From the NCBI GenBank assembly GCA_963707865.1, contig OY970175.1, positions 489,493 through 553,492 on the forward strand: a stretch of 64,000 nucleotides of DNA, read 5' to 3'. The stretch is from an uncultured bacterium (lineage in GTDB: Bacteria > Patescibacteriota > Minisyncoccia > UBA6257 > 2-01-FULL-56-20). The notes under the pieces were generated by a model. The model did not search any database, was not told the DNA's origin, and worked only from the letters and a program-made list of their open reading frames with translations. The position numbers and the translations under genes are program-made. Positions 2,748 to 64,000 of the stretch are shown here, one piece after another (the first letter of the stretch is position 1; every line of letters begins with the position of its first letter).

Positions 2748-5192
2748 ATGGAAAAAAGGTTAAATAAAAACTTACTAATAAAAATTATGAAAAAAACAAT
2801 AGTTTTTGTGTCAGTGTTTGCCTTATTCGGAAGCAGCGTAGGTCTTGCGGTCGCCCAGACTACCGCCCTGAGCCAGACACTCATCGCTGACGGCGTTAAG
2901 ATTACTTTCCCGAGCGCCGGATATGAACAGTGGCTGACAAGCAGTTGGGAAGGAACTTCGGTACAGATGGCAGATGCCGTAACGGGGCAGCCCGTGTCGG
3001 CTGGGTATTGGAATATCACGCTTGCATCGCCGGGCCAGACCGAAATGGACCTTTTGGTAAACTCTAATGGTGGCGGATCTGGAATCGTTGGCGGTAGCAT
3101 TTTCATCCCCAGGGCTGGAACATGGATGGCAACCGGGATTGAGCCGGTATCGGAAGGCTCTAGTCCCCTCCCGACCGGCTACACCGCGGGAGAGCTGATC
3201 CCGGCAACTTCAAACGCTCTTACGGTCCTCAGTCCTCCCGCTCCCTATCACGTAACCGTCTCTCCTACGACCTTCGGTGAATATAATGCCGGGGGAGGCG
3301 GTCCCCATATTCCCTCCAGCGAGCTGACCGTCTCCATCACGGATCCATCCGGCAACAGGCCGCCCGATGGTGTATATGGGTTGTGGTTTGGAACGCCCGG
3401 GGGCTCGGATGAATGGCAAATAGCGGTATCGAACGGTGAAGTACCGATATGGAATTGCTGGAATGCTTCGGGAACGGCGTTTCTGGATTATCCGGCTGGG
3501 GAATGGGCAACAGGCGAAATAAACTGTTTCGACGGCAATCCCAATTATGGCTGGGGAGTACTGGGTAATGGCGATACCTACCAAGTTGTTGACGTAACGC
3601 TCCCGAGTAATTCTCCGACCTATGGAAACTACCCAGGTGGACAAACGGTGCCAGCAACCTCCAATAGTTTTCAGGTGGCCGCGACCGTAGCAGGCCAGAA
3701 TCCCAATTCACGGCCCGTTTCCTCGAGTGGCTCCGCTGGCGGCACTAGCAGCGGCGGAACCAGCAACACTGGCGCTGGCTCCTCGCAGACCTCGGGGGCG
3801 ACGACGCTTTCAGAGACTATGAATACGCTCTCGCAATTGCTCGCCAAGCTCTCGCAAACCAACGCGACACTCTACACGCAAGCCCTGGCAATCTTAAACC
3901 AGCTCATAAAACTCTTGGGAGGCACGGGCGGTTCCGTAATCACCACACCTATTACTCCATCGCCAACGCCATCTTCGCCCACGTCCCCTCCCGCGCAATC
4001 GTGTGCTACGACGTATTCCCTCGGCAACCTTGGAGCAAACGCCTACTCGAGCGGCATCGCCTTCGACGGGACCAATATGTGGACATCAAACATGAGCAGT
4101 GACGGTGGCAGCGTGACGAAGATCACGCCGTCGGGCGTCACGACGACGTACCCCATCGGAGCAGGCCTTGCCCCTGAAGGCATCGCCTTTGACGGCACCA
4201 ACATGTGGACGGCGAACTACAGCGGCAGCGTGACGAAGATCACGCCGTCAGGCGCCACGACGACGTATTCCGTCGGAGGAACTCTTTATCGCATTGCCTT
4301 TGACGGCACCAACATGTGGACGACAAACGTAGGCGGTATCGGTGGCAGCGTGACGAAGATCACGCCCACGGGTGCCGCGACGACGTATTCCGTCGGCGCA
4401 GCATTTACTTACCCTGAAGGCATCGCCTTTGACGGGACCAACATGTGGACGGCGAACTATGTAATCAGTGGCGGCGGTAATGTGACGAAGATCACGCCGT
4501 CAGGTGTTGCGACGACGTATCCCATCGGATTATCAGCAAGAGAAAGCAATATCCCTCTTCGCATCGCCTTCGACGGGACCAATATGTGGACGGCGAATGG
4601 GCTCAGCGCCTACGTAAGTAGTGGCAGCGGCAGCGTGACGAAGATCACGCCGTCGGGCGCCGCGACAACGTATTCCCTCGGAGCAGGCATTAACCCTGCA
4701 GGCATCGCCTTCGACGGGACCAATATGTGGACGATGGACGGTAATAGCGGCAGTGTGACGGAGATCACGCCGTCAGGCGCCATGACGACGTATTCCGTCG
4801 GCGCAGTAGGCCCTAGCATCGCCTTTGACGGGACCAACATGTGGACGGAGAGCAGCGACGGCGTGACGAAGATCGCGATCGGCGCTTGTTCACTTTCCTC
4901 GTCCGCCGCTTCAAGCGGTACCACGGCATCGACACCAAGCACTTCATTTAGCTACACCTGGAACACGGACTTGCAGTATGGCATGTACAACAACGCTGAC
5001 GTGAGCGCGCTTCAGCAAGCGCTCACGCTGCAAGGAGTATATAGCGGCCCCGTGACCGGAAACTTCTTGAGCGCGACAGAGGATGCCGTTGTGCTCCTCC
5101 AGCAAAAGTATGGCATCCCCGGGACGGGGTACGTCGGACCGCAAACGCGCGCTGAGTTGAACACGCTGTACGGGAGGGGGCAAGTTCCATAG
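2748..5192 (+). CDS. Secreted beta-propeller repeat protein (NHL/Vgb-lyase-like repeats) with C-terminal peptidoglycan-binding domain (PG_binding_1)
   Basis: Signal peptide MKKTIVFVSVFALFGSSVGLAVAQ (alternative start at 2787). About 8 repeats of ...GIAFDGTNMWT.N...GSVTKITPSG..TTY.... The C-terminus LQQALTLQGVYSGPVTGNFLSATEDAVVLLQQKYGIPGTGYVGPQTRAEL is PG_binding_1-like. Confidence 0.7.
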   Translation: MEKRLNKNLLIKIMKKTIVFVSVFALFGSSVGLAVAQTTALSQTLIADGVKITFPSAGYEQWLTSSWEGTSVQMADAVTGQPVSAGYWNITLASPGQTEMDLLVNSNGGGSGIVGGSIFIPRAGTWMATGIEPVSEGSSPLPTGYTAGELIPATSNALTVLSPPAPYHVTVSPTTFGEYNAGGGGPHIPSSELTVSITDPSGNRPPDGVYGLWFGTPGGSDEWQIAVSNGEVPIWNCWNASGTAFLDYPAGEWATGEINCFDGNPNYGWGVLGNGDTYQVVDVTLPSNSPTYGNYPGGQTVPATSNSFQVAATVAGQNPNSRPVSSSGSAGGTSSGGTSNTGAGSSQTSGATTLSETMNTLSQLLAKLSQTNATLYTQALAILNQLIKLLGGTGGSVITTPITPSPTPSSPTSPPAQSCATTYSLGNLGANAYSSGIAFDGTNMWTSNMSSDGGSVTKITPSGVTTTYPIGAGLAPEGIAFDGTNMWTANYSGSVTKITPSGATTTYSVGGTLYRIAFDGTNMWTTNVGGIGGSVTKITPTGAATTYSVGAAFTYPEGIAFDGTNMWTANYVISGGGNVTKITPSGVATTYPIGLSARESNIPLRIAFDGTNMWTANGLSAYVSSGSGSVTKITPSGAATTYSLGAGINPAGIAFDGTNMWTMDGNSGSVTEITPSGAMTTYSVGAVGPSIAFDGTNMWTESSDGVTKIAIGACSLSSSAASSGTTASTPSTSFSYTWNTDLQYGMYNNADVSALQQALTLQGVYSGPVTGNFLSATEDAVVLLQQKYGIPGTGYVGPQTRAELNTLYGRGQVP

Positions 5193-6191: not shown

Positions 6192-8402
6192 ATGACCCAG
6201 GTTACTCTTGAGGCTCCCCTCTTTGAAGTTATCGGCGCACGTGTCCCGCTCCTTCGGCAGTTGGAAAAGCTCGGCGTCACGACCGTCGGCGACCTTCTCT
6301 ATTATTTCCCGTTCCGCTACGAAGATTTTTCAAAGATCTACGCCATCGCGGACCTTGAACCGGGCCAGCAGGCAACCATCCAAGCGACCATTGAAGAAAT
6401 CTCCTTCCGGCATACCTGGAAGAAGCGGATGAGCATCGTGGAAGCAATACTCGCGGACGCCTCCGGTTCTCTCCGCGCCGTATGGTTCAACCAGCCCTAT
6501 GTGGCAAACGTCCTCAAAGTCGGCCGCCTCGCGAACTTCGCGGGAAAAATTTCGCTTTCCGAAGAGGGCGAAGTGTATTTGAGCCATCCGGCGTATGAAC
6601 TGATACGGCGTCTGCCCAGCACCACTTCTGCATCTGTTGCAGATGCAGAAGTGGTGCTGGGCGGGACCAAACACACCGCGCGGCTCGTACCCATTTACCC
6701 GGAAACGCGCGGCCTTACCTCCCGCGGCATCCGCTTCGTCATGCAATCGGTCCTCCGGCGGAAGCCGCTACTCACGGAGTGGATCCCACCCGCCATCCTC
6801 GCCGAATTCCTCCTTCCCGAGATACGCGAGGCAATCGCATCGGTCCATTTTCCAAAACATCTCGACGACGCCCTCACCGCAAAAAAACGGTTTGCTTTTG
6901 AAGACCTTTTTCTTCTCCAACTTTTCAATCTCCAGCAGAAACTCACACTTTCCCGGGAACAAGCGCCGGCCATCGCCGTCGATATTCCAAAAGTAAAGAG
7001 GGTGCTTTCCGCGCTGCCGTTCACGCTCACCGCGTCACAGAAGAAATCGCTCTGGGAAATTATGCAAGACATGGCGCGGCCACGGCCGATGAACCGCCTG
7101 CTCCAGGGAGACGTGGGCTCCGGAAAAACCGTCATCGCGGCCATCGCCGCGATGGGCGCAGCCGACCACGGATTCCAAACCGCCTTCATGGCACCCACGG
7201 AAATCCTTGCGCACCAGCATTTTGAAACCATGAAGAAACTTTTTCTGGATACCGCGGAGCACGGCATCGCGATCGGCCTTCTCACGGCGAGCGGCGGCAC
7301 CGCCTTCTATGAAAACGGCGTTGAGGCGAAGATGCCGAAGCGCGAGTTGCACGCGAAGGCCGCGCGCGGAGAAATCGCAATCGTGTTCGGCACGCATGCG
7401 CTCATCCAAAAATCAGTGCATTTCAAAAATCTCGGTTTTGTCATCGTGGACGAGCAACATCGCTTCGGCGTGCGCCAGCGCGCCGAACTCTCCGCGAAAA
7501 AGGGCGGGCTCACGCCGCATTTCTTAAGTATGTCGGCGACGCCGATCCCGCGGACGCTTATGCTCACGGTGTTCGGCGATCTGGACCTCTCACTCATCAC
7601 GGAACTCCCGGCGGGCAGGAAACCGATTGCGACAAAGCTCGTCCCGCCGCTTGGGCGGACCGCCGCCTACGCCTTTGTGCGCGGCGAGATCACGCAGGGC
7701 CGGCAGGCATTCGTCATCTGCCCGCGCATTGAACCGGCCGAAGGGCACGAAGGGCAAAAATCGGCCGAAGCGCGAACCGCGAGAAGCGGCGAGCTCAAGC
7801 AAATAAAAACGCTGGAACTAAAATCGGTGAAAGAAGAATATGAAAAATTGTCGGAAAACGTTTTCCCCAATCTCGCGATCGCAATGCTCCACGGCCAGAT
7901 GAAAGCGAAGGAAAAAAATGACGTCATGCGGCAATTCAAGGACAAACAATTTGATATTATCGTCACGACCTCCGTCGTGGAAGTCGGCGTGGACATCCCG
8001 AACGCGACAATCATGATGATAGAGGGCGCCGAACGGTTCGGCCTCGCCCAGCTCTATCAGTTCCGCGGCCGCGTGGGGCGGGGCGAGCACCAATCCCATT
8101 GCTTCCTCATGGCGGATACGAACGCAAAAACCGCGCACGCGCGGCTCAAAGCAATCCTTGAAGCGAAAAACGGGTTTGAACTCGCAGAGAAGGACCTCGC
8201 CCTGCGCGGTCCCGGCCAATTTTTCGGAGAAATCCAAACAGGACTCCCCGACATCGCCATGGAAGCGCTCCGCGATCCGGAACTTGTGAAAACCAGCCGC
8301 GACGCGGCGATCAAGACCATCCAAGCCGACCCTTCGTTAAAAACCCATCCCCTGCTCAAAGCCAAACTGGAACAATTCCGAGACAGGATCCATCAGGAGT
8401 AA
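6192..8402 (+). CDS. recG: ATP-dependent DNA helicase RecG
   Basis: N-terminal wedge region. Helicase motifs GDVGSGKT, DEQHRFGV, SATPIPRT, and FRGRVGRG with the Q motif region. Confidence 0.9.
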   Translation: MTQVTLEAPLFEVIGARVPLLRQLEKLGVTTVGDLLYYFPFRYEDFSKIYAIADLEPGQQATIQATIEEISFRHTWKKRMSIVEAILADASGSLRAVWFNQPYVANVLKVGRLANFAGKISLSEEGEVYLSHPAYELIRRLPSTTSASVADAEVVLGGTKHTARLVPIYPETRGLTSRGIRFVMQSVLRRKPLLTEWIPPAILAEFLLPEIREAIASVHFPKHLDDALTAKKRFAFEDLFLLQLFNLQQKLTLSREQAPAIAVDIPKVKRVLSALPFTLTASQKKSLWEIMQDMARPRPMNRLLQGDVGSGKTVIAAIAAMGAADHGFQTAFMAPTEILAHQHFETMKKLFLDTAEHGIAIGLLTASGGTAFYENGVEAKMPKRELHAKAARGEIAIVFGTHALIQKSVHFKNLGFVIVDEQHRFGVRQRAELSAKKGGLTPHFLSMSATPIPRTLMLTVFGDLDLSLITELPAGRKPIATKLVPPLGRTAAYAFVRGEITQGRQAFVICPRIEPAEGHEGQKSAEARTARSGELKQIKTLELKSVKEEYEKLSENVFPNLAIAMLHGQMKAKEKNDVMRQFKDKQFDIIVTTSVVEVGVDIPNATIMMIEGAERFGLAQLYQFRGRVGRGEHQSHCFLMADTNAKTAHARLKAILEAKNGFELAEKDLALRGPGQFFGEIQTGLPDIAMEALRDPELVKTSRDAAIKTIQADPSLKTHPLLKAKLEQFRDRIHQE

Positions 8403-8696
8403 CTGCTTACTGCCACCACTCAACGATCACTATGCCGTCGGCGCCGCCGTTCGCCGTTACCGTCTGGAAGCGAGGGACGCCCTACGTCAAATATTCCCCG
8501 AAAGCTTTACAATGATAACTGCCGGAACTGCGTTTCGCCAAAAACCGAACGCGGGCGCGCCTTGGTTTTCCTGGGTTCCAGTCCCTGATTGAAAAATCAG
8601 GATAGAGTTCAGCGGCGTTTCTCTTTAATGAAGAACCTCACGCTTACGGGCGAGAAGTTCACGCGCGAATTAGAAATAGCCTGCTTATAAGAACTG

Positions 8697-8851
8697 GAAT
8701 GTTCCCTTCCCATGTACAACGGCAACAACAACGTTGTAGCGACGATATTCGGCAATGGTGGCTGTAATTACGCCAACTACGGCAACGTCGGCAACAACAA
8801 CGGCAACGAGAATAGCTACAACTTCCGTTGCGCGCGCTAGCCCTTCAGCCA
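8697..8851 (+). repeat. DGR template repeat (TR)
   Basis: About 155 bp, ~88% identical to the VR at 10420-10575 when VR is taken on the minus strand. All 18 mismatches are A in TR (AAC codons) against non-A in VR. Includes the shared GC-rich 3-prime end ttgcgcgcgctagcccttcagccag. It lies inside a 42-codon + strand ORF from the ATG at 8712; the + strand stops upstream at TAA 8688 and at the shared TAG at 8839. Confidence 0.85.
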
Positions 8852-10024
8852 GGAAAACAACTCAAACACCCGCGGATAATATTCTTTAATCCAAGGGTGT
8901 TTTTGTTTTGTTTTTAAAATCAAATTATACGTATCGGCATGAACAAGGTGCCCAAAATAAGAAGCGATGGAATTTCTGACATCCGAATGCTCCATTACAT
9001 CGCGGTAATTTTCAAAAAGCCACATCTTATGTTTGAATTTTTTGACTATCCGCCGGCGCACATAAACGCGCCACGGCTTCACGAAATAACCGATAAAATC
9101 CATGCCGTAAGACAATGGTTGCATATGGCATTTTTTTAAATTCAATTCAAGAAAAAGACTTTCTTTTAAAAATACTTTAATCGCGCCGAAAAACTCTTTC
9201 AATTTTTCCTTGTCTTTGTGAATAATGTAAAAATCATCCACATATCTGCCGTAAAATTCGCATTTTAATTTTCTTTTTACGAACTGGTCCAGTTCGTTCA
9301 AATAAACATTGGCGAAAAATTGCGATGTTAAATTACCGATAGGCAAACCAACATCTTCGCGAATACCAAAAAGAGATTTTTGCCTCGGCACGATTTTTAA
9401 AAGGTCGCTATCACCTTTTATTATGTAATTTTTCGTCGGGTCGTAAAAAATTATCGTTTCTGCGAGCCACTGCAATTCATCTTTTATATTTTCGGAAAAC
9501 AAGGTTGATGCTATTTTCTTGAAAACCAATTCGCGCAAAATCCCTTTGTTGATATGCATAAAGAATCCCGAGATGTCGGCTTTCAGATAATACCAATTAT
9601 TGTAATGTTCCGGATCTGAATTTTGAATGCGCCTGATGAATTTTTGAAGCCGCTTCATCGCGAAAAGCGTTCCCTTGCCTTTTCGGCAAGCGTAACTGTC
9701 ATAAATAAAGGATTTTTCAAAATAAGATTCAACTGTTCTGACAAAAAGATGGTGGACAACGCGATCGCGGAAATCGGCGGCGAAAACTTCCCGTATCACC
9801 GGCTCTTTCACGGCAAAGCAAATAGATACGCCCGGAGAATAGGCACGTTCGCGCAAATCTTCCAATAGCCGCCACAGATTATCCTCCAGATTACACTCAA
9901 ACCGCAAGGCGTTGATGGTATTTCTTTTTCTTTTTCGGCAATCAAGATACGCGTAATACAGATTTTCAAACGTGAACAGCGACTCTTGGGGGTCAGGTTT
10001 CATTGTTTTACGCTTTTCAGCCAT
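8837..10024 (-). CDS. DGR reverse transcriptase
   Basis: RT domain with YVDD-type motif (GRYVDDFYII) and the DGR-typical IGNLTSQ ([ILV]GxxxSQ) motif. N-terminal LFTFENLYYAYLDCRKRKR. Adjacent to avd and TR. Confidence 0.9.
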   Translation of the reverse strand: MAEKRKTMKPDPQESLFTFENLYYAYLDCRKRKRNTINALRFECNLEDNLWRLLEDLRERAYSPGVSICFAVKEPVIREVFAADFRDRVVHHLFVRTVESYFEKSFIYDSYACRKGKGTLFAMKRLQKFIRRIQNSDPEHYNNWYYLKADISGFFMHINKGILRELVFKKIASTLFSENIKDELQWLAETIIFYDPTKNYIIKGDSDLLKIVPRQKSLFGIREDVGLPIGNLTSQFFANVYLNELDQFVKRKLKCEFYGRYVDDFYIIHKDKEKLKEFFGAIKVFLKESLFLELNLKKCHMQPLSYGMDFIGYFVKPWRVYVRRRIVKKFKHKMWLFENYRDVMEHSDVRNSIASYFGHLVHADTYNLILKTKQKHPWIKEYYPRVFELFSWLKG

Positions 10025-10347
10025 CCTTCGTTTTGCCTGCTTATCTCCACCAGGATTGCGCTTAGTCTTTCATAATGCTTTAGATCTTTTAGGCATTTCA
10101 GGTCAAAAGCCAAGCGGACCAGCAATTTTAATTTTTCCAGTTTTATCCACAATTCCTCCAGATACTTTCTCTTTTCGCAATGATTGTTCGCGATCATGAT
10201 GAGGGAAGGAATTTCATGGCTAATCTGGCGGATCTCCGTTCCGATCGTGTATCGGTAATCCCGGGAAAAACTTCTTGCCTGCAATTCAATTTCAAGGCAT
10301 AGATCGTATGCTTTCTTGAATATCGGCAAATGATCGTAGCGCGCCAT
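10000..10347 (-). CDS. avd: Avd (accessory variability determinant)-like four-helix-bundle protein
   Basis: A 115-aa basic helical protein (IFKKAYDLCLEIELQARSFSRDYRYTIGTEIRQIS...). It sits between the target gene and the RT and overlaps the RT start by 25 nt. Confidence 0.7.
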   Translation of the reverse strand: MARYDHLPIFKKAYDLCLEIELQARSFSRDYRYTIGTEIRQISHEIPSLIMIANNHCEKRKYLEELWIKLEKLKLLVRLAFDLKCLKDLKHYERLSAILVEISRQNEGWLKSVKQ

Positions 10348-10419
10348 CGTATGATTTTAAAAATTATCAAAGCCTCCGCCCAGCCCAAAAACGGCGGGAC
10401 GGAAATAATAAAATAATCA

Positions 10420-10575
10420 ATCTGGCTGAAGGGCTAGCGCGCGCAACGGAAGGAGTAGCTATACCCGGCGCCGTAGTTGGCGCCGACGGGGCCGTAGGTG
10501 GCGTAATTACAGCCACCACCGCCGAATATCGCCGCTACAACGGCGCTGTTGCCGTTGTACATGGGAAGGGCAGTA
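10420..10575 (-). repeat. DGR variable repeat (VR) at 3-prime end of target gene
   Basis: Reverse complement matches TR 8697-8851. VR carries G, C or T at every TR adenine that differs. Homology extends ~14 nt past the stop codon (cccttcagccag). Confidence 0.85.
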
Positions 10576-11174
10576 TTGCTCGCCCATTCGTTGTTCGTCG
10601 TCATCGTGGATAAACCCCACGTACTTGAGTTGTTGCAGGAAAGTTGCCACTCGAACGGTTCCGGCAGGCGCATATTGTTCTGAAGGCAAATCTGCTTTGC
10701 CTGCGTCCAATATTGGGCGGAACGCTCGCCCGCTTCAATAATGAAACCGACATTGCCGACCGAACAATTGCCGCTGCCGGTGGCCACGCCCGCGCTGCGT
10801 TTGTCGTAGTTCGTCATACCGCCATTGAAACAGACCTCGGTATACGCTGCGGGCGGATTCATCGCCACGATCGCGTTGTTATATATACCGTTGTTGGCGC
10901 TCATTGAATTCGTCGTTGTGCTGATACTGGACAACGCCGCGTTGAGGGTCGACGTGCTGATGCCGGCGTTGAGAACGGCGTTATCAACATACGCCTTCGT
11001 TGCCGCATCGCTCGCCGCCGTAGTCGTCGTGAGCCCCGTGATGCGGCCGGGAATCGTAATCACGCCGCTCACAGAAGCGTTCACCTCGTTCAGGCGGCTG
11101 TAAAGGTAAAGCGCTGCCACGAATGCGACCATCGCGAACGTTACCACGATAAAAACCTTGTACTTCGTTTCCAT
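10434..11174 (-). CDS. DGR target protein, membrane-anchored, C-type-lectin/DUF1566-like fold with C-terminal variable region
   Basis: N-terminal TM helix. The C-terminus ...QICLQNNMRLPEPFEWQLSCNNSSTWGLSTMTTNNEWASNTALPMYNGNSAVVAAIFGGGGCNYATYGPVGANYGAGYSYSFRCAR shows the typical FRCAR end of DGR VRs. Confidence 0.85.
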   Translation of the reverse strand: METKYKVFIVVTFAMVAFVAALYLYSRLNEVNASVSGVITIPGRITGLTTTTAASDAATKAYVDNAVLNAGISTSTLNAALSSISTTTNSMSANNGIYNNAIVAMNPPAAYTEVCFNGGMTNYDKRSAGVATGSGNCSVGNVGFIIEAGERSAQYWTQAKQICLQNNMRLPEPFEWQLSCNNSSTWGLSTMTTNNEWASNTALPMYNGNSAVVAAIFGGGGCNYATYGPVGANYGAGYSYSFRCAR

Positions 11175-11252
11175 TGTTGTGCAGTATTCGTTCTCCTTTA
11201 GTATAGCATCCCCGGAAAGGAGTCCCCTGTGGATATCCGCGGCGAGGTTAGG

Positions 11253-12557
11253 TCAGGCGCTTTCATCAAGAAGCCATTTCCATAACGGTTTGAACGTTAT
11301 GATCTTCCCGTCCTTTTTTACTTCCCGTTCGTCATCCCAAGTCAGCACCGTGAGTTTCCTTGCTTTTAATTCGTTGCTTGCCTCCGTGAGCGCCCGTACC
11401 TCTCGTTCTCCGGCATCTGTATCTTTGGCTTCAAAGCAAACCTGAATCAACTCCGCTATTTCCGTCCCTTTTTTTACGACAAAATCCACCTCGTGATCAT
11501 TGCGGCTTTTATAGTAGAAAAGCTCCTGATTCGGTTTCATCCCGCGCTTCGCGAGCTCCATGAAAACAAGATTTTCCATAAGCTTGCCTTTATCCGGCGA
11601 ATGTTGAATCGCTTTCGCGCTTACGAATCCGTTGTCAACGACATACGCTTTCTTGGGCGACTTTATGCGCTGAACCGACTTTGCGGAGTAGCGGAACAAG
11701 GAGAATATCAAATAGGCTTCTTCCAGATATTTCGTGTACTTTTCCGTCGTCGCTACACTTTTGAGGCCGAGAATCTCCTGCAATTTGCGGAGGCTGTACG
11801 GGTTAGCAAAATTATTCACCAAATGCGATCCCAGGCTGCTTATTTGTGCCGAAAACTTGACCCTGTGCCGCCTTACCACATCCTTGAAAAGCAACGAATC
11901 ATACAGGACTTCCAGATAATCTTTTGGGTCAAGTTTTTCCACTGTCACCTCAGGGAATCCGCCGTTCAGCAAGTACTCTTCTACCAGCCGCAAAAGCTCT
12001 CCGCGCTTTTGAGGCAAGGAGCCATATTCAGAATCAACGGCGAAATTTTTCGCGCGGAGGAATTCGCCAAAATCGAACGGCAATATTTCTATGGGAATAT
12101 GCCTGCCGGTAAGATGCGTGGCAAGTTCCCGCGAAAGCAGATGGGCATTGGATCCGGTAAGCATCAGGTTGTATCCCTCTCGGTGTAAGCGATTGGCGAA
12201 CAGTTCCCAGTTGGGCAGATTCTGAATTTCATCAAAGAGAATAGTTTTTATGTTGCCGTAGGCGGCGTGCAATTTTTTCATGAGATCGTCGGTCGCTATG
12301 CCGCCGGCGGCAGCCAAAACCTCATCGTCAAAATTGAAGTACATAAAAGGCCGCTCTTTCAAAAGCATGAGTGAAAAAACAGATTTGCCTGCACGCCTCG
12401 GCCCTAAAACGACTTTTATCAACCGCGAATCCAGCCACTTCTTGCCGAAACTTTCCTTTGTTCTTGCCACATACCGCAAGCGCAGAAGCTGCTCCTTTTC
12501 CAGCTTTTGCTTTAAAACTATGTCATCAAGCATAATTTTTGTAGTGGTCAAAAACAC
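11253..12557 (-). CDS. AAA-family ATPase with DUF4143 C-terminal domain
   Basis: Walker A VLGPRRAGKS and Walker B ILFDEIQ. Architecture matches the archaeal-ATPase/DUF4143 family. Confidence 0.7.
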   Translation of the reverse strand: MFLTTTKIMLDDIVLKQKLEKEQLLRLRYVARTKESFGKKWLDSRLIKVVLGPRRAGKSVFSLMLLKERPFMYFNFDDEVLAAAGGIATDDLMKKLHAAYGNIKTILFDEIQNLPNWELFANRLHREGYNLMLTGSNAHLLSRELATHLTGRHIPIEILPFDFGEFLRAKNFAVDSEYGSLPQKRGELLRLVEEYLLNGGFPEVTVEKLDPKDYLEVLYDSLLFKDVVRRHRVKFSAQISSLGSHLVNNFANPYSLRKLQEILGLKSVATTEKYTKYLEEAYLIFSLFRYSAKSVQRIKSPKKAYVVDNGFVSAKAIQHSPDKGKLMENLVFMELAKRGMKPNQELFYYKSRNDHEVDFVVKKGTEIAELIQVCFEAKDTDAGEREVRALTEASNELKARKLTVLTWDDEREVKKDGKIITFKPLWKWLLDESA

Positions 12558-12575
12558 GTTATTTTGACCACTACA
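12541..12575 (+). promoter_or_regulatory. Perfect 13-bp inverted repeat (gtagtggtcaaaa / ttttgaccactac) at the start of the ATPase gene, putative operator
   Basis: Read directly from the sequence. A further tggtcaaaa copy follows. Confidence 0.3.
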
Positions 12576-12637
12576 GTTAGTATACTGGTCAAAATACAGA
12601 ATGCAAGCTGGAACTTAAACCTACCCGACCCCCTCAA

Positions 12638-12916
12638 TTAGGACCCCTTGGCTTTCAGATAATTTTCCACCTCATAAATATCCCGAATCGGCGCATCAAT
12701 TTTTTTATGCGCCGCGATTGCTTCCACTTGGCGGATATTGAGTGCATTGCCCTCAATCTTCGTAGAGGCGTGCGTCATGCGGATTAAGGCCTGTGTGCGC
12801 AAACGAAGTTCCTGTTTCGGCAATAACCGGGCGCGTGCAATAACCGCTTTCGCCTCAGCGATTGCGGTGAGCATTGTGACGATTTTGTTGCTCAACTTGT
12901 ACCGCGGATGGAACAT
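12638..12916 (-). CDS. Fic N-terminal domain fragment (Fic_N only)
   Basis: MFHPRYKLSNKIVTMLTAIAEAKAVI...STKIEGNALNIRQVEAI... is Fic_N-like. It lacks the HPFx[DE]GNGR core. It lies divergent to an intact fic gene. Confidence 0.55.
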   Translation of the reverse strand: MFHPRYKLSNKIVTMLTAIAEAKAVIARARLLPKQELRLRTQALIRMTHASTKIEGNALNIRQVEAIAAHKKIDAPIRDIYEVENYLKAKGS

Positions 12917-12984
12917 ACGCTCATTATATCGCTCAGTGCATAATCGCGCAAGAATCGCGCAAACGTTCGAGGACGGTAACTTTA

Positions 12985-13023
12985 TAAAGTTCGCCCGCTT
13001 TGCACAACTTTATAAAGTTTGGT
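12985..13023 (+). promoter_or_regulatory. Two copies of the 14-bp palindrome aactttataaagtt separated by 12 bp, putative operator
   Basis: Self-complementary 14-mers at 12985-12998 and 13011-13024, in the divergent region between the Fic_N fragment and fic, overlapping the fic start. Confidence 0.35.
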
Positions 13024-13686
13024 AATATAAATTATGCTCATGAATATGCGTCAAAAACTGGAAATTATTCAAAAAATGCTGGCATTGAAGGCAGCACGCT
13101 CACCGAACCGGATACGGCAGCGATTCTTTTTGACAATGCCGCACTGCCCAACAAAAGCTTAACCGAGCAATTGGAGGCGAAAAATCATCAAACAGCCCTG
13201 AATTACCTCTTTGATCATATTGCAAAGAAAGAAAAGGTTGACGAGGGACTTGTGCGCAAGCTCCATAGCATTCTCATGAATGGCGTCCGGCCGGACGCCG
13301 GCAGGTACCGCACCCACGCCGTAAGAATTACCGGAGTTAATTTGCCGACCGCCAATTACGCGAGCGTCCCTAAATTAATGACAGAGGTAATGAGCAAGAT
13401 TACTGAAAAAGAAGATGTCATTGCATTGTCCGCCGACGTTCACGGCGAATTTGAGCAGATTCACCCATTTTCCGATGGCAACGGACGTATCGGCCGCCTC
13501 CTTATAAACGCAATGTTACTTCAAACGAATCTCGCCCCTGCAATAATCCGTGAGGGACAAAAACGGCTTTATTACGCATATCTTTATAAGGCACAGACCA
13601 AAAACGACTACAGCCAATTGGAAAACTTTCTCTGTGAGGCGATCGCGGATGGATTCAAAATTCTGGAGCGTGCGAATGTGACGTAA
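13000..13686 (+). CDS. Fic/Doc family protein (AMPylase-type)
   Basis: Fic core motif HPFSDGNGRIGRLL. An upstream IEG-containing N-terminal region is also present. Confidence 0.8.
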   Translation: MHNFIKFGNINYAHEYASKTGNYSKNAGIEGSTLTEPDTAAILFDNAALPNKSLTEQLEAKNHQTALNYLFDHIAKKEKVDEGLVRKLHSILMNGVRPDAGRYRTHAVRITGVNLPTANYASVPKLMTEVMSKITEKEDVIALSADVHGEFEQIHPFSDGNGRIGRLLINAMLLQTNLAPAIIREGQKRLYYAYLYKAQTKNDYSQLENFLCEAIADGFKILERANVT

Positions 13687-13711
13687 TGTAGCGGCCCTTA
13701 GCTCACGTTGG

Positions 13712-14377
13712 CTATGGTGCCGCGGGCTCCGTTGCGGACCCTGCTATGAGGTCCACCTTCCCCTTGAAATCGCCGGCGCTTGCAAGACCGAACCACGTGC
13801 TGTCAATACTCCCCGCCGGGTTATTCCCTAAAACAAGATAGGCGTCGGCCGGAATGACGCCGCCCTGATCACCCACGTAGAGCGCAAGCATCCGGCGCGC
13901 GGCATCCGACACGAGATAGGTTTCCCCTTGCGCGTTCGCAAGCGGCGCGCCGTTCACGAGGATGTGCCACCTTGAACCGCTCTTTTGGAACGCGAGCATA
14001 TCCCCCGGCACTCCCATCACACTTTTTACAAGATCCTCCGCCCCGCCGTAATCGTAATCAACGATGTCCCCGCGCGCCACCGCGTGGCAGGCGTAATAAT
14101 TCTCCAAAACCGTGATATGCTCCCCGTCAGAGAGAATCCCCTCCATGGAAGTCCCGCGCACCGTCATAGTTTCCTCCCGCACCGCGCAATCCGCGGTTTG
14201 CGGAATCATCGCGGCGGCCGATGCCGCACTCGCCGCCGCGGCCGAAAACAGCGCGTCTCTGCCGTTTTGAAGCACGAATGAATTTCTGAAAACAACCAAG
14301 GCAACGAGCGCGAACGCCGCGCCCACCGCGATGCCGAGCGCGCTGCATTTCGTTGCTGATTTAAAAAATCCGCGCAT
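13712..14377 (-). CDS. Signal peptidase I (S26 family)
   Basis: GTSMEGIL (GTSMxPTL box) and an N-terminal TM helix. Last gene of the pilin/GT2 cluster. Confidence 0.65.
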   Translation of the reverse strand: MRGFFKSATKCSALGIAVGAAFALVALVVFRNSFVLQNGRDALFSAAAASAASAAAMIPQTADCAVREETMTVRGTSMEGILSDGEHITVLENYYACHAVARGDIVDYDYGGAEDLVKSVMGVPGDMLAFQKSGSRWHILVNGAPLANAQGETYLVSDAARRMLALYVGDQGGVIPADAYLVLGNNPAGSIDSTWFGLASAGDFKGKVDLIAGSATEPAAP

Positions 14378-19412: not shown

Positions 19413-19440
19413 GGTTCTCACGTCGTCCAGCCGCCGGAGC
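19413..19440 (+). repeat. 28-bp tRNA-3-prime-like repeat, copy R1 (outlier)
   Basis: ggttctcacgtcgtccagccgccggagc. Confidence 0.8.
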
Positions 19441-35575: not shown

Positions 35576-35689
35576 CGTCCAAAAACACGGAGGGATAGAT
35601 GAAGAGAGAATCAAGGGCGCTGACTGAAAGGAGGCAGCGCCCGCTCACCTAAGATTATCGCCAGACTGACAATTTTAGGTGAGACAGGA

Positions 35690-35717
35690 GGTTCTCACAT
35701 CGTCCAGCCGCCGGAGC
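35690..35717 (+). repeat. 28-bp repeat, copy R3
   Basis: ggttctcacatcgtccagccgccggagc, consensus copy. Confidence 0.85.
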
Positions 35718-35720
35718 CGA

Positions 35721-35759
35721 GAAAAAAAGTAGCTGCGAGAAACATCATTTCGCAGCTAC
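35721..35759 (-). terminator. Rho-independent terminator of metallopeptidase cassette gene
   Basis: Hairpin gtagctgcg...cgcagctac followed on the minus strand by T7. Overlaps the last codons. Confidence 0.5.
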
Positions 35760-36317
35760 TTGAGCTATACGCAGCCACTTTCTGATCAGTGCCTGCTGTT
35801 CATCGTCCGGCGGTGGTCCCAGGCGACTTCGAAACTTCTTACCGGGTCCTTGTAGGGTCCAACTCACTGACTCCGCAAAATCCCCGGCGCCGAAGAGATA
35901 GTCTGGACAAGTCCTGCTTAACGACGGCGGATACCAAGGCGTATTCGGTGGCAACTTGCGAAGTGCAAGCCACCCATGTCGCATCTCGGCAGTAAGGAAT
36001 CGCACATCGAAGCCGTGTGCAAGCTCGTGGACGATCGTCGTAGCCACGGCTTCCGGCGACTGTGAGGAACGAATCCAGATATCGATAGTATGTCGCTCGG
36101 GATCGCAAAGACCCAAGAGGTGGGGCCGCCCTTGATGGAACTTAATTTTCCACTCAGGAAATATGGGCCGCCAGTCCCAATTCACTTTCTTCAGAGCTTC
36201 TTGACCAACCTGTTTGTGACGAAGAACCGATAGGGTTTTCTGAGAATGGATTATTTGGGCAAACGACGATGTCGTCGCTATGCCCACAAGAAATACAAGC
36301 ACGACGGGACGCCTCAT
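35745..36317 (-). CDS. Secreted HExxH zinc-metallopeptidase-like protein
   Basis: Signal peptide MRRPVVLVFLVGIATTSSFAQ and IVHELAHGFD. About 80% identical paralog at 50910-51479. Confidence 0.6.
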   Translation of the reverse strand: MRRPVVLVFLVGIATTSSFAQIIHSQKTLSVLRHKQVGQEALKKVNWDWRPIFPEWKIKFHQGRPHLLGLCDPERHTIDIWIRSSQSPEAVATTIVHELAHGFDVRFLTAEMRHGWLALRKLPPNTPWYPPSLSRTCPDYLFGAGDFAESVSWTLQGPGKKFRSRLGPPPDDEQQALIRKWLRIAQVAAK

Positions 36318-36404
36318 CGTTAGCCTCCTCTAGTGAATTTGTTTCCAAGACCTATATTCCTTGTAGCTTGCTATTGATTAACCCGTCAAGGGACAAAGTA
36401 AATA

Positions 36405-36432
36405 GGTTCTAACATCGTCCAGCCGCCGGAGC
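36405..36432 (+). repeat. 28-bp repeat, copy R4
   Basis: ggttctaacatcgtccagccgccggagc. Confidence 0.8.
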
Positions 36433-50457: not shown

Positions 50458-50862
50458 TTGGAGCTTAGTTCGAGCATCGGCGCCGGAGCGGATATTGTAA
50501 TAGTTTGGAAAATAGCTCAGAATGAATTTATGAAAACCTCCCCTCGAACCGTCGGATTCGTTCAGGCTGCCGGTTTGACATTATACGTGAGTCTTTTCGC
50601 CGTGTTCATCCAGCAAGCGCAAAGTTGGTTCTTATTTCACGGCGTTCAAGCTAGTCCTGCTATGAGCATCGTCCTTTTCCTGCTCGCCTTTGTCATCTCG
50701 GCGCTCATCTGTGGCTCGCTGATCCTGGGCTACCCGCTTCTGCTTTTCTCTTCCGGCCAGCACAACGAGGCGATGAAAATCGTTCTCTGGAGTCTCCTTT
50801 GGCTCGTCGTCCTAGCCCTCTGCATCGCGCTTATTGGTTTCTCTTTCCTGTCGAGGTTCTAA
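50458..50862 (+). CDS. Small membrane protein (4 TM)
   Basis: A hydrophobic 134-aa ORF. Its stop codon lies within repeat R13. Confidence 0.45.
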   Translation: MELSSSIGAGADIVIVWKIAQNEFMKTSPRTVGFVQAAGLTLYVSLFAVFIQQAQSWFLFHGVQASPAMSIVLFLLAFVISALICGSLILGYPLLLFSSGQHNEAMKIVLWSLLWLVVLALCIALIGFSFLSRF

Positions 50863-50882
50863 CGTCCTCCAGCCGCCGGAGC
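50855..50882 (+). repeat. 28-bp repeat, copy R13
   Basis: ggttctaacgtcctccagccgccggagc. Confidence 0.8.
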
Positions 50883-50909
50883 GGAGAAAAAAAGTAGCCG
50901 CGGGAAACA

Positions 50910-51479
50910 TCATTTCGCAGCTACTCGAGCCATACGCAGCCACTTTCCGATCAGTGACTGCTGTTCATTGTCCGGTGGCGGTCCCAGGCGACTTCGAAAC
51001 TTCTTGCCAGGTCCTTGCAGAGTCCAACTCACCGACTCCGCAAAGTCCCCGGCGCCAAAGAGGTAATCCGGACAAGTCCTGCTCAACGACGGCGGATACC
51101 AAGGCGTATCCGGTGGCAACTTGCGAAGTGTAAGCCACTCGCGCCGCATCTCGGCAGTAAGGAATTGTATATCAAAGCTGTGTGCAAGCTCATGAACAAT
51201 CGTCGCAGCCACAACTTCCGGCGACTGTGAGGGACGAATCCAGATATCAATAGTACGTCGCTTGGGATCACAAAGACCAAGGAGATTGGGCCGCCCTTGG
51301 TAGAATTTAATTTTCCACTCAGGAAGTATGGGCCACCAATCCCAATTTACTTTCTTCAGGGCTTCCTGGCCCACGTGTTCATAACGAAGAGCTGATGGGG
51401 GTTTCTGAAAATTTGTTTGGGCAAACGACGATATCGTCGCTATACCCACAAGAAGCATAAGCAGGACTGGACGCTTCAT
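50910..51479 (-). CDS. Secreted HExxH zinc-metallopeptidase-like protein (paralog of 35745-36317)
   Basis: MKRPVLLMLLVGIATISSFAQ...IVHELAHSFD. The whole repeat-to-repeat cassette is duplicated. Confidence 0.6.
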   Translation of the reverse strand: MKRPVLLMLLVGIATISSFAQTNFQKPPSALRYEHVGQEALKKVNWDWWPILPEWKIKFYQGRPNLLGLCDPKRRTIDIWIRPSQSPEVVAATIVHELAHSFDIQFLTAEMRREWLTLRKLPPDTPWYPPSLSRTCPDYLFGAGDFAESVSWTLQGPGKKFRSRLGPPPDNEQQSLIGKWLRMARVAAK

Positions 51480-51566
51480 CGTTGGCCTCCTCTAGTGAAT
51501 TCGTTTCCAAGACCTATCTTCCTTGTAGCTCGCTATTGATTAACTCGTCAAGGGATAAAGTAAGCA

Positions 51567-51594
51567 GGTTCTCACATCGTCCAGCCGCCGGAGC
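51567..51594 (+). repeat. 28-bp repeat, copy R14
   Basis: ggttctcacatcgtccagccgccggagc, consensus copy. Confidence 0.85.
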
Positions 51595-57392: not shown

Positions 57393-58391
57393 TGCACACA
57401 CATATGGCGGACTCCCGTACAATCGGGGAATGTCGATCCATATGGCTGAGAATATCAAACAAGAGCGGGTGCGGTGGGTGGAACCCATTGTAAAAGGTCG
57501 CACAAGCACCACCGAAGTGATGAAGGTGTTTCCGTATGGGAAGCGGACCTTGGAGCGGTGGCTGCAGGCATACCGGCGTGGCGGTGAATCAGCGCTTGAA
57601 CCGCGTTCCACCCGGCCGAAGACCTCGCCCAAGGAAACACCGATCAGCATCAAGGAAGCAATCATCGCGTTGCGCAAGAAGAGAAAGGTCTGCGCGCTCA
57701 AACTGCATTGGAAGCTCGAAAAGGTGGGCATCCATATCCATGAGCGCACCATCGGAAAAATCTTGAAGACAGAAAGGCTCGTGCGGAAGTATCGTACCAA
57801 AAAGATCACGTACAAATATATCAAAGCCACCTGGAAGCCTGGCGACCTCATGGAGATCGACGTGAAGCATGTGCCGGGAACCGTTGCGGGACGTGCATAT
57901 TTTCAATATACGGCGATCGATTGTGCCTCCCGCTGGCGCTACCTCCGGATTTTCGAGGAAGAGTCCACGCAGAACACCCTCCTCTTTCTTGCGGATGTCA
58001 TCCGGCGATTTGAATATCGGATCACCGGCGTGAAGACGGACAACCATGCGACCTTCACCAACCGGTACACGGGCACGTACAAGCGGGCGGATCTTTCGCC
58101 TGCCCATCAACACGCTTTGGACCGCTTCTGCGCCGAACGCGGCATCGTGCACTACCTCATCGATCCGGGGAAGCCCGCGCAGAACGGCAAGGTCGAACGC
58201 TCGCATGGGTCGGACCAGAGAACGCTCTACCACGAAACAACATTTGCTTCGGCAAAGGATTTGCGCCAAAGGGTACGATGGTGGAATACTGAGTACAACA
58301 ACCTTGAACACTGTGGCCTGAATGGCAAGACGCCGAACGAAGCGCTTGCCGAGTTCAAAACCTAGTCCGCCATATGTGTGTGCCTAAAACA
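57393..58391 (+). mobile_element. IS481-family insertion sequence, copy A
   Basis: Terminal inverted repeats GTGCACACACATATGGCGGACT (left) and AGTCCGCCATATGTGTGTGCC (right). Identical inverted copy at 63100 onward. Confidence 0.75.
57430..58365 (+). CDS. IS481-family DDE transposase
   Basis: 311 aa with HTH and a DDE core (DNHATFTN...NGKVERSH). Identical to the ORF at 63126-63974. Confidence 0.85.
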   Translation: MSIHMAENIKQERVRWVEPIVKGRTSTTEVMKVFPYGKRTLERWLQAYRRGGESALEPRSTRPKTSPKETPISIKEAIIALRKKRKVCALKLHWKLEKVGIHIHERTIGKILKTERLVRKYRTKKITYKYIKATWKPGDLMEIDVKHVPGTVAGRAYFQYTAIDCASRWRYLRIFEEESTQNTLLFLADVIRRFEYRITGVKTDNHATFTNRYTGTYKRADLSPAHQHALDRFCAERGIVHYLIDPGKPAQNGKVERSHGSDQRTLYHETTFASAKDLRQRVRWWNTEYNNLEHCGLNGKTPNEALAEFKT

Positions 58392-58769
58392 GCCGTCACT
58401 CACGTAGGTGATTCTATTTCCGAAAACGATCAAGGTAATCCGTAACTTCTCGAAATTGCTGCGTCCAATCCGCTTGGCCGTTTCCTCAAATGCATCAATA
58501 AGTTTCTGCAACTGACGCTGCTCCTTATCGTTGTCTCGAGAGATGAACCCCGCGAAGTCCACGTTCGGATAGCGGATCACTAACTGCTCAAGGCTTGAGA
58601 TGGTCGGGACTGCACCGTGAGGATTTTGCCCTGTTGCCGACGCGTCGCGAGTCAACATCTTCTTAAGATACTCCATGACAAGCTCTTTCTGGGCGCTGGG
58701 GAGGGAAGAGAGTTTCGCTATAAGTTCCTCAAAATCAATTCCCCCATCTTCATGGTGTGGAGAGTTCAC
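58362..58769 (-). CDS. Hypothetical protein (C-terminal 6 codons and stop supplied by IS terminal repeat)
   Basis: A 135-aa ORF. The last residues HTHMAD plus the stop are encoded within the IS right inverted repeat. Confidence 0.4.
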   Translation of the reverse strand: MNSPHHEDGGIDFEELIAKLSSLPSAQKELVMEYLKKMLTRDASATGQNPHGAVPTISSLEQLVIRYPNVDFAGFISRDNDKEQRQLQKLIDAFEETAKRIGRSNFEKLRITLIVFGNRITYVSDGCFRHTHMAD

Positions 58770-63057: not shown

Positions 63058-63099
63058 ATGATATCCTCCTCTCTCCATATGATAGCACGCAAAAGCGGG

Positions 63100-64000
63100 T
63101 GTTTTAGGCACACACATATGGCGGACTAGGTTTTGAACTCGGCAAGCGCTTCGTTCGGCGTCTTGCCATTCAGGCCACAGTGTTCAAGGTTGTTGTACTC
63201 AGTATTCCACCATCGTACCCTTTGGCGCAAATCCTTTGCCGAAGCAAATGTTGTTTCGTGGTAGAGCGTTCTCTGGTCCGACCCATGCGAGCGTTCGACC
63301 TTGCCGTTCTGCGCGGGCTTCCCCGGATCGATGAGGTAGTGCACGATGCCGCGTTCGGCGCAGAAGCGGTCCAAAGCGTGTTGATGGGCAGGCGAAAGAT
63401 CCGCCCGCTTGTACGTGCCCGTGTACCGGTTGGTGAAGGTCGCATGGTTGTCCGTCTTCACGCCGGTGATCCGATATTCAAATCGCCGGATGACATCCGC
63501 AAGAAAGAGGAGGGTGTTCTGCGTGGACTCTTCCTCGAAAATCCGGAGGTAGCGCCAGCGGGAGGCACAATCGATCGCCGTATATTGAAAATATGCACGT
63601 CCCGCAACGGTTCCCGGCACATGCTTCACGTCGATCTCCATGAGGTCGCCAGGCTTCCAGGTGGCTTTGATATATTTGTACGTGATCTTTTTGGTACGAT
63701 ACTTCCGCACGAGCCTTTCTGTCTTCAAGATTTTTCCGATGGTGCGCTCATGGATATGGATGCCCACCTTTTCGAGCTTCCAATGCAGTTTGAGCGCGCA
63801 GACCTTTCTCTTCTTGCGCAACGCGATGATTGCTTCCTTGATGCTGATCGGTGTTTCCTTGGGCGAGGTCTTCGGCCGGGTGGAACGCGGTTCAAGCGCT
63901 GATTCACCGCCACGCCGGTATGCCTGCAGCCACCGCTCCAAGGTCCGCTTCCCATACGGAAACACCTTCATCACTTCGGTGGTGCTTGTGCGACCTTTTA
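63100..64000 (-). mobile_element. IS481-family insertion sequence, copy B (inverted, truncated by window end)
   Basis: Sequence identical to copy A in reverse orientation, including GGCACACACATATGGCGGACT at 63107-63127. Confidence 0.75.
63126..64000 (-). CDS. IS481-family DDE transposase (3-prime complete, N-terminus beyond window)
   Basis: Protein identical to the 57430-58365 transposase. The ORF continues to the window edge. Confidence 0.85.
   Translation of the reverse strand, partial: KGRTSTTEVMKVFPYGKRTLERWLQAYRRGGESALEPRSTRPKTSPKETPISIKEAIIALRKKRKVCALKLHWKLEKVGIHIHERTIGKILKTERLVRKYRTKKITYKYIKATWKPGDLMEIDVKHVPGTVAGRAYFQYTAIDCASRWRYLRIFEEESTQNTLLFLADVIRRFEYRITGVKTDNHATFTNRYTGTYKRADLSPAHQHALDRFCAERGIVHYLIDPGKPAQNGKVERSHGSDQRTLYHETTFASAKDLRQRVRWWNTEYNNLEHCGLNGKTPNEALAEFKT

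Follow-up and report, generated by a model that had tools for sequence, protein, structure and literature searches.

The window analysed here is a stretch of 64,000 nucleotides (64 kb) from an uncultured bacterium of the Minisyncoccia (contig OY970175.1, assembly GCA_963707865.1), and it holds a genuine and complete diversity-generating retroelement (DGR). Three open reading frames (ORFs) on the minus strand supply its protein-coding part: a target gene of 246 amino acids (aa; 10434–11174), the gene of the accessory variability determinant (Avd; 115 aa, 10000–10347) and that of a reverse transcriptase (RT; 395 aa, 8837–10024). The target gene ends in a variable repeat (VR; 10422–10570, minus strand), which takes in the last 45 target codons, the stop codon and 12 nt past the stop. 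The corresponding template repeat (TR) lies at 8704–8852, and its adenine-bearing sense strand is the plus strand.

In an ungapped alignment of the TR with the reverse complement of 10422–10570, 131 of the 149 positions are identical. At each of the 18 mismatches the TR has an A, which is replaced in the VR by G (8), C (7) or T (3), and non-adenine differences are absent over the full 149 nt. Given that adenines make up 42 of the 149 TR positions, the probability of finding 18 of 18 mismatches at A by chance is ~1.3e-10 (binomial) or 5e-12 (hypergeometric). A separate repeat search of the window recovered the same pair (inverted repeat I2, 149 nt, 88%), and the homology has sharp ends on both sides. 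The changes are confined to codon positions 1 and 2 (nine each) and spread over 12 codons, 10 of which are AAC or AAT. Read in the VR frame, the TR contains 11 AAC and 3 AAT codons, none of them mutable to a stop, and its ~23 variable codons correspond to ~1e22 possible proteins. The 3'-terminal 31 nt of the TR, a GC-rich block, are the same in the VR. A scan for copies matching the non-adenine positions of the TR found no second VR in the window. An earlier annotation of this DNA, the sequence-only reading, had proposed adenine-only mismatches located mostly in AAC codons, and the pairwise alignment bears out both statements. It had also picked the right pair of repeats, although with limits a few bases too wide (TR 8697–8851, VR 10420–10575).

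The RT matches Pfam RVT_1 (E 1.8e-17) and carries LPIGNLTSQFFANVYL and YVDD. Its IGNLTSQ motif fits the pattern [ILV]GxxxSQ. In a search of all PDB sequences, the closest solved relative is the BPP-1 bRT (8ub7 and relatives; E 4.8e-39, over two stretches), followed at a distance of 30 orders of magnitude by the best group II RT (E 4e-9), while matches to retron-type RTs are weaker still. By its sequence, the protein would belong to the DGR clade and not to the group II or retron RTs. One could nevertheless read the locus as a group II intron, a retron or a defence RT lying beside a chance inverted repeat, and NCBIfam does report partial matches to group II, retron and Drt models. These matches are far below threshold, however (e.g. 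92.6 bits against a cut-off of 300). The margin by which bRT leads, the adjacent Avd and an adenine-only pattern with P ~1e-10, which recurs in every relative, all contradict such a reading, and we consider it effectively refuted. An alternative RT start is present at 10003, in an ATGA overlap with the avd stop codon, and an identical RT protein of 388 aa occurs on an 898,885-bp NCBI contig.

Avd matches the Pfam family bAvd (PF22296) with an E-value of 1.7e-12 and 48.2 bits (cut-off 40). The target protein consists of an N-terminal transmembrane (TM) helix (~11094–11162), a DAATKAYVD stalk and a C-terminal domain (~10437–10880) that ends in the VR. This domain is compact (~147 aa) and Cys-rich, with EWASN and FRC[AV]R signatures, and has a C-type-lectin fold, with TvpA and Mtd among the matches. 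The VR is thus placed at the 3' end of the target ORF, in a fold that tolerates diversification. No Pfam domain matches the target, and sequence identity to TvpA of Treponema denticola, to other C-type-lectin variable proteins and to the C-terminal domain of Legionella Lcl is only 18–21%. The sequence-only reading fared well on the proteins: the minus-strand coordinates of target, avd and RT match the ORF list, its IGNLTSQ motif and avd gene are backed by the RT and Avd matches above, and both the hydrophobic N-terminal helix and the SYSFRCAR terminus of the target are present, the latter in the lectin-type domain it had suggested. As a separate observation, the stalk (residues ~36–62, window 10990–11070; motif ITGLTTTTAASDAATKAYVD) resembles a segment of a phage tail fibre (PDB 23sh gp9, with an E-value of only 0.15), and its motif recurs as DAATK[AGS]YVDA in many family members whose N-termini are otherwise unrelated.

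The most unusual trait of the locus is its layout. The TR matches the reverse complement of the plus-strand VR sequence, and it is the minus strand of the VR that codes; hence, the TR carries its adenines on the plus strand, opposite to target, avd and RT. The chemistry of DGR RTs is adenine-specific, with misincorporation opposite template adenines (Roux et al. and others); therefore, the template RNA must be a plus-strand transcript that converges with the RT gene. The sequence-only reading had named the right DGR parts and left the strand of the TR implicit. The canonical co-linear order, with TR, VR and RT on one strand, does not apply here, as the TR runs antiparallel to VR, avd and RT and needs transcription of its own. 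TR and RT meet tail-to-tail: the last 16 nt of the TR coincide with the 3' end of the oppositely directed RT ORF. Within this overlap lies the palindrome CTAG (8837–8840), which stops the RT when read on the minus strand and, on the plus strand, is the counterpart in the TR of the target stop codon. In the window and most of its relatives, these four bases close both reading frames.

To place this layout, the loci of RT relatives were fetched. The close set comprises the window and nine distinct relatives with RT identities of 56–77%, and all ten have an inverted TR directly after the RT gene (the relatives being L002, L006, L009, L095, L097, L099, L100, L101 and L103). Wherever the VR is on the contig, the order is target-avd-RT-(inverted TR), and TR/VR mismatches are always at adenines, as read on the strand that does not encode the RT. 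A survey of more distant relatives covered 85 loci (RT identity 34–54%), 60 of them with a detectable TR/VR pair; a contig scan using a single RT query returned only five distant loci. Among the 60 pairs, TR and VR are both on the RT strand in 47 and both on the opposite strand in 13, and none has a TR antiparallel to its VR. An arrangement with TR and VR on opposite strands is rare but known, and TR and RT need not share one transcript (myDGR, Wu et al. and others; PMC6602519, PMC3521204, PMC5758913). The present layout is a clade-specific version of a catalogued rarity, and co-linearity is not a defining trait of DGRs.

When the 220 nt upstream of the TR were aligned in TR sense for the relatives, a structured leader RNA of 186 nt emerged directly 5' of the TR (8518–8703, plus strand), which shows strong conservation with visible covariation. 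It is composed of a 5' hairpin, a long-range helix that we call helix 3 (8575–8582 with 8693–8700), a hairpin CCTGA/TCAGG (8584–8588 with 8597–8601) and an inner helix. RNAalifold predicts 28 pairs from ten relatives, 18 of which are accompanied by compensatory changes. Helix 3, the 3' arm of which ends 3 nt before the TR, reads TTCCAGT/ACTGGAA in the window, for which relatives have the covarying pairs TTTCGGC/GCCGAAA, TTTTGGC/GCCAAAA and CCTGTT/AACAGG. A covariance model (R1) built from ten leader sequences scores 122 bits on the window leader. It also matches 14 more distant loci with a detected TR, always directly 5' of the TR and in TR sense: L028, L031, L065, L019, L027, L076, L017, L034 and L018 with default filters, and L033, L045, L029, L039 and L036 with filters off, each match being weak on its own (E 6e-5 to 0.6). 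The leader follows the orientation of the TR, be it parallel to the RT or not. In an alignment of 19 leaders, 95% of the cells pair and 25 of the 28 pairs show double changes, against 37–46% pairing in slid-partner controls, although this alignment was fitted to the model and so leans towards it. No Rfam 15 family matches the leader at E-values up to 10, apart from chance hits to microRNA-like hairpins.

Upstream of the leader, the hexamer TACAAT (8508–8513, plus strand) is a candidate −10 box for the TR RNA gene. Relatives carry similar boxes (TGTTATAAT, GCTATAAT or the like) ~5–10 nt before the conserved leader start, which are TATAAT-like and often read TGnTATAAT.

The leader also pairs with the TR itself. 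Its segment GUUUUCCUGG (8565–8574, plus strand), located just 5' of helix 3, is complementary to CCAGGAAAAC at the 3' boundary of the TR (8849–8858). A duplex of 9–10 bp forms in 10 of 10 relatives, with compensatory changes such as TTTTCCTAG/CTAGGAAAA, GTTTTTCTGG/CCAGAAAAAC, TTATCCTAG/CTAGGATAA and ACGAACTAG/CTAGTTCGT, and in distant loci the two positions are likewise paired, through sequences unrelated to these. A different pairing, between the leader GC block GCGGGCGCGCC and the GC-rich 3' block of the TR, was considered and dropped, since by eye the complementarity fails in L009 and L002; it is the adjacent U-rich leader segment and not this GC block that covaries with the TR end.

Directly after the leader-TR duplex, a hairpin (8862–8872 with 8894–8904) and a U-rich tract follow 3' of the TR (8862–8915, plus strand), within the codons for the KHPW...PRVF tail at the C-terminus of the RT. 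The hairpin (8862–8904) has a minimum free energy of −21.6 kcal/mol (z −3.9), and an 11-bp consensus stem followed by a U-rich tract is found in 10 of 10 relatives. In TR sense, the stem comprises 90 Watson-Crick, 11 G-U and 8 mismatched cells, versus 90, 1 and 18 in RT sense, and 7 of the 10 sequences fold better in TR sense. This makes the hairpin a candidate intrinsic terminator of the convergent TR RNA; conceivably, it might also have a role in protein binding. Its presence in distant loci with other layouts is inconsistent, and we treat it as a clade-specific, terminator-like element, having discarded the idea that it is a general DGR element.

These RNA features bear on another scheme, in which the template is read from the RT strand by read-through of a target-avd-RT transcript, and the plus-strand leader and hairpin are unrelated to it, for example as a bidirectional terminator or an untranslated region. 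A single transcript would be the simplest mode of expression, and in some sequences the 3' hairpin can indeed form in RT sense. Such a transcript, however, would present U instead of A at the variable positions, in contradiction to the adenine-specific chemistry of the RT. Moreover, the G-U pairs of the hairpin, of helix 3 and of the leader-TR duplex favour the plus strand, the leader tracks the orientation of the TR and not that of the RT in other layouts, and a hairpin in RT sense would terminate transcription ahead of the RT stop codon. We hence regard templating from the RT strand as very improbable.

The element is chromosomal and its host is a member of the candidate phyla radiation (CPR)/Patescibacteria. 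The relatives of the adjoining RecG (6192–8402) are named Minisyncoccia, Paceibacterota or Patescibacteria, and those of the RT Wolfebacteria, Falkowbacteria, Brennerbacteria, Staskawiczbacteria and Moranbacteria. DGRs are enriched in this lineage (Roux et al. 2021; Wu et al. 2018). The TR/VR pattern, the RT and Avd matches, the anchor helix and the CPR host all agree with the DGR put forward in the sequence-only reading.

Comparison with two sibling genomes (L105 and L109; RecG 89–90% identical), which have neither RT nor avd, exposes the borders of the element. Nucleotide identity of ~88–89% extends from recG to window position 8437/8446 and resumes at 10971, inside the target gene, in L105, but at the nucleotide level only at 12649 in L109. 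In the siblings, the neighbouring gene encodes the same N-terminal ~70 residues, i.e. the TM helix and the DAATKAYVD stalk (57–72% protein identity over the aligned stretch; the anchor region of L105 is 89% identical to the window at the DNA level), joined to a different C-terminal domain that has no VR. At the left junction, identity to L105 and L109 marks 33 nt (8405–8437, minus strand) as a remnant of the 3' end of the displaced resident gene; in L105 they form the 3' end of a minus-strand gene of 356 aa. The segment absent from the siblings (8438–10970) contains the TR RNA gene, RT, avd and the 3' two-thirds of the target gene, and the GC content of its RT/avd region is 0.39, compared with ~0.53 in the neighbouring genes. 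Because of the different C-terminus in the siblings, the 33-nt remnant and this GC contrast, we conclude that a 2.5-kb cassette of leader-TR RNA gene, RT, avd and lectin-VR module took the place of the C-terminal domain in an anchored protein that was already resident, with the reading frame kept. Formation of chimeric targets by this route was proposed by Roux et al. from modularity alone.

TR and VR share an identical stretch of 31 nt at their 3' ends, so that only the flanks can tell donor from recipient. An AT-rich motif, ATTGATTATTTTATTATTTCCG (10400–10421, minus strand), directly follows the VR end. Seven of 9 loci have (G)ATTGATTATTTnnTTATTT here, exactly where TR and VR cease to match, however far away avd may be. 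In L103, strong GC hairpins follow the VR in place of this motif. We propose the AT-rich motif as a candidate marker of the recipient site. On the plus strand, the GC skew is −0.029 and negative throughout the window, and genes lie 2:1 on the minus strand, which suggests that the target is co-directional with replication. In E. coli, a co-directional target orientation favours DGR editing (PMC12875486).

Taken together, we consider it highly probable that the element is a chromosomal CPR-type DGR made of two convergent transcription units. The first, on the minus strand, would encode the membrane-anchored target, with its C-type-lectin domain ending in the VR, followed by Avd and RT. The second, on the plus strand, would be a non-coding RNA gene of ~400 nt with a promoter at ~8508, the leader (8518–8703), the TR (8704–8852) and the hairpin with its U tract (8862–8915). 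In this model, an RT-Avd complex binds the leader-TR RNA. The pairing of leader segment 8565–8574 with the TR 3' boundary at 8849–8858, and helix 3 abutting the 5' end of the TR, would loop out the TR between two adjacent duplexes, much as in the BPP-1 ribonucleoprotein, with the pairing strand attached upstream of the TR and not downstream of it. Synthesis of cDNA would begin near 8848, run to the 5' end of the TR, where helix 3 may impose the stop, and misincorporate opposite adenines on its way. The cDNA would then replace the VR, 1.6 kb away on the other chromosome strand, so that up to 23 codons could be recoded on the exposed face of the lectin domain, at the tip of what is probably a ligand-binding protein.

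The overall organisation is reminiscent of the BPP-1 DGR (mtd-VR, avd, TR, spacer, brt). Both have an RT of the same clade, an Avd, a C-type-lectin target with a C-terminal VR and adenine-specific transfer from TR to VR with AAC-rich template codons, and in the predicted RNA described here, as in BPP-1, the TR ends would be held by two adjacent duplexes. The BPP-1 spacer forms one of these with the 3' part of the TR (template:primer) and the other with a segment upstream of the TR. However, the BPP-1 element is phage-borne with all parts on one strand, whereas the element in the window is chromosomal and its TR is antiparallel to VR and RT. In BPP-1, the essential structured RNA is the spacer 3' of the TR; in the window, the large structured RNA precedes the TR, and only a short hairpin comes after it. 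The RT-10 motif was assigned to the BPP-1 spacer 3' of the TR by Weinberg et al.; in the window, a spacer of this type, 3' of the TR and on the RT strand, was not found, as there is no Rfam match and all that flanks the TR on its 3' side is one hairpin, antisense to RT codons. The TR RNA may thus represent a circular permutation of the DGR RNA, with the topology of BPP-1 and the pairing strand joined upstream.

Several points weigh against this picture of a functional two-unit element, in addition to the weakness of the distant R1 matches and the lean of the 19-leader alignment. A consensus scan called no sigma-70-like promoter on the plus strand upstream of the TR, which leaves TACAAT as a putative promoter, and transcription of the TR RNA is something we infer from the sequence. 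Likewise, the start of cDNA synthesis near 8848 is an estimate drawn from the predicted duplex. Against the NCBIfam model DivGenRetAVD, Avd scores 55.5 bits, under the cut-off of 80. The canonical GC-rich GRNA hairpin after the VR, present in BPP-1, was not found, and a stem-loop 30–50 nt past the VR is weak (z −0.8); Wu et al. reported a hairpin after the VR in only 34% of DGRs. Finally, the sequence-only reading had suggested looking for VR polymorphism at the TR-adenine sites, and none was seen at the level of assemblies: a metagenome scan with the TR pattern (A to N) gave 0 matches to VR variants, and the assembled VRs of relatives are identical across samples.

The missing population-level variation, together with the lack of a canonical hairpin and of a called TR RNA promoter, could be explained if retrohoming had ceased and the VR were the frozen product of past diversification. 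We consider such a fossil unlikely. Not one non-adenine difference has accumulated over 149 nt, the 3' 31 nt included, the three ORFs are intact with their catalytic motifs, and none of the RNA elements (leader, duplex, hairpin) is damaged or scores worse than in relatives. In addition, the cassette is absent from genomes that are ~89% identical, so its acquisition must be fairly recent. We read the element as one that may still be active. An independent assembly of the same avd-RT (L001; Logan ERR10755942, 1629 nt) has both of its ends in the 30 nt common to TR and VR. These ends show only that the repeat breaks assemblies, and short-read assemblies may systematically fragment the element.

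When comparing the element with DGRs of the same lineage, the 'CPR set' of Wu et al. 2018 and DGR clade 2 of Roux et al. 2021, the host lineage, the small uncharacterised targets without Pfam domains and the leader RNA are common to both. Whereas 90% of the CPR set have the order TR-(avd)-RT (B3; Wu et al., PMC5758913), this subclade has VR-avd-RT-(TR), and whereas CPR targets usually lack a TM segment (Roux et al.), the target in the window has one. The 'inverted' DGRs of Schillinger et al. 2012 (group 4, PMC3521204) similarly have a TR transcribed separately from the RT. In group 4, however, TR, VR and target together lie opposite the RT, whereas in the window only the TR RNA gene is inverted, tail-to-tail with the RT.

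The surroundings of the DGR are variable as well. An island at 11236–13747 adjoins it, with the gene of an AAA_14/DUF4143 ATPase (11253–12557) and Fic/DOC genes or fragments (12638–12916, 13000–13686); it is absent from L105 and partly present in L109, and the same ATPase family is also encoded near the DGR in Falkowbacteria loci (L006–L008). A signal peptidase I gene (Peptidase_S26; window 13712–14377) is a recurrent DGR neighbour (also in L002, L006, L009 and L095), divergent from the TR RNA gene in relatives and adjoining the gene of the anchored protein in the siblings of the window. This neighbourhood may reflect a preferred insertion site or a functional tie to secretion of the target.

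Further repeats were found elsewhere in the window. A 27–28-nt motif, GGTTCTCACRTCGTCCAGCCGCCGGAGC, occurs in 16 copies within 19406–56651, all on the plus strand and mostly intergenic (at 19414, 34415, 35691, 36406, 37824, 38229, 39641, 42691, 43287, 44932, 46629, 47476, 50856, 51568, 51918 and 56603). The copies are irregularly spaced (350–5000 nt), lie between genes of both orientations and differ in their flanks, except in duplicated cassettes (35688–35987 with 50853–51152, and 36251–36432 with 51413–51594; 90%). The motif could be the recombination site of a cassette array, a regulatory element or one akin to repetitive extragenic palindromes. A perfect inverted repeat of 905 nt (57491–58395 and 63096–64000), with 4.7 kb between its arms and the second arm reaching the window edge, could represent insertion-sequence copies, an invertible segment or an assembly feature. 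Tandem coding repeats of ~110–150 nt (4030–4880; at least 7 units) lie in an ORF of 814 aa (2748–5192), and two 80-nt repeats (202–281 and 1129–1208) lie 927 nt apart; both probably belong to repeat-domain surface proteins.

As a DGR, the element is ordinary, one more case among thousands, in a lineage rich in them. The parts worth following up are the RNA model and the grafting event. In the comparison with siblings, we see a resident surface protein whose anchor has received a DGR cassette in frame, and the inverted TR across the whole clade presents the donor RNA gene as an autonomous module. With the covarying leader and the duplex it forms at the 3' end of the TR, the RNA of CPR DGRs can be modelled in concrete and testable terms; to our knowledge, no DGR of this type has been reconstituted so far. 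CPR-type DGRs are the largest cellular DGR group. We tentatively suggest, with slightly less than even confidence, that they use a circularly permuted RNA in general, in which a 5' leader of ~150–185 nt contributes both the partner strand for the 3' boundary of the TR and the helix that closes at its 5' end. A published survey covered only 40 nt upstream of TRs and would have missed such a leader, possibly a trait of CPR DGRs in general that has yet to be described. If this holds true, the leader would take over the roles of the 3' spacer of BPP-1, i.e. primer/template duplex and cDNA stop. Promoter, leader and TR would then form a self-contained module that can be placed in either orientation, which would explain the inverted TR of this clade as well as the other layouts.

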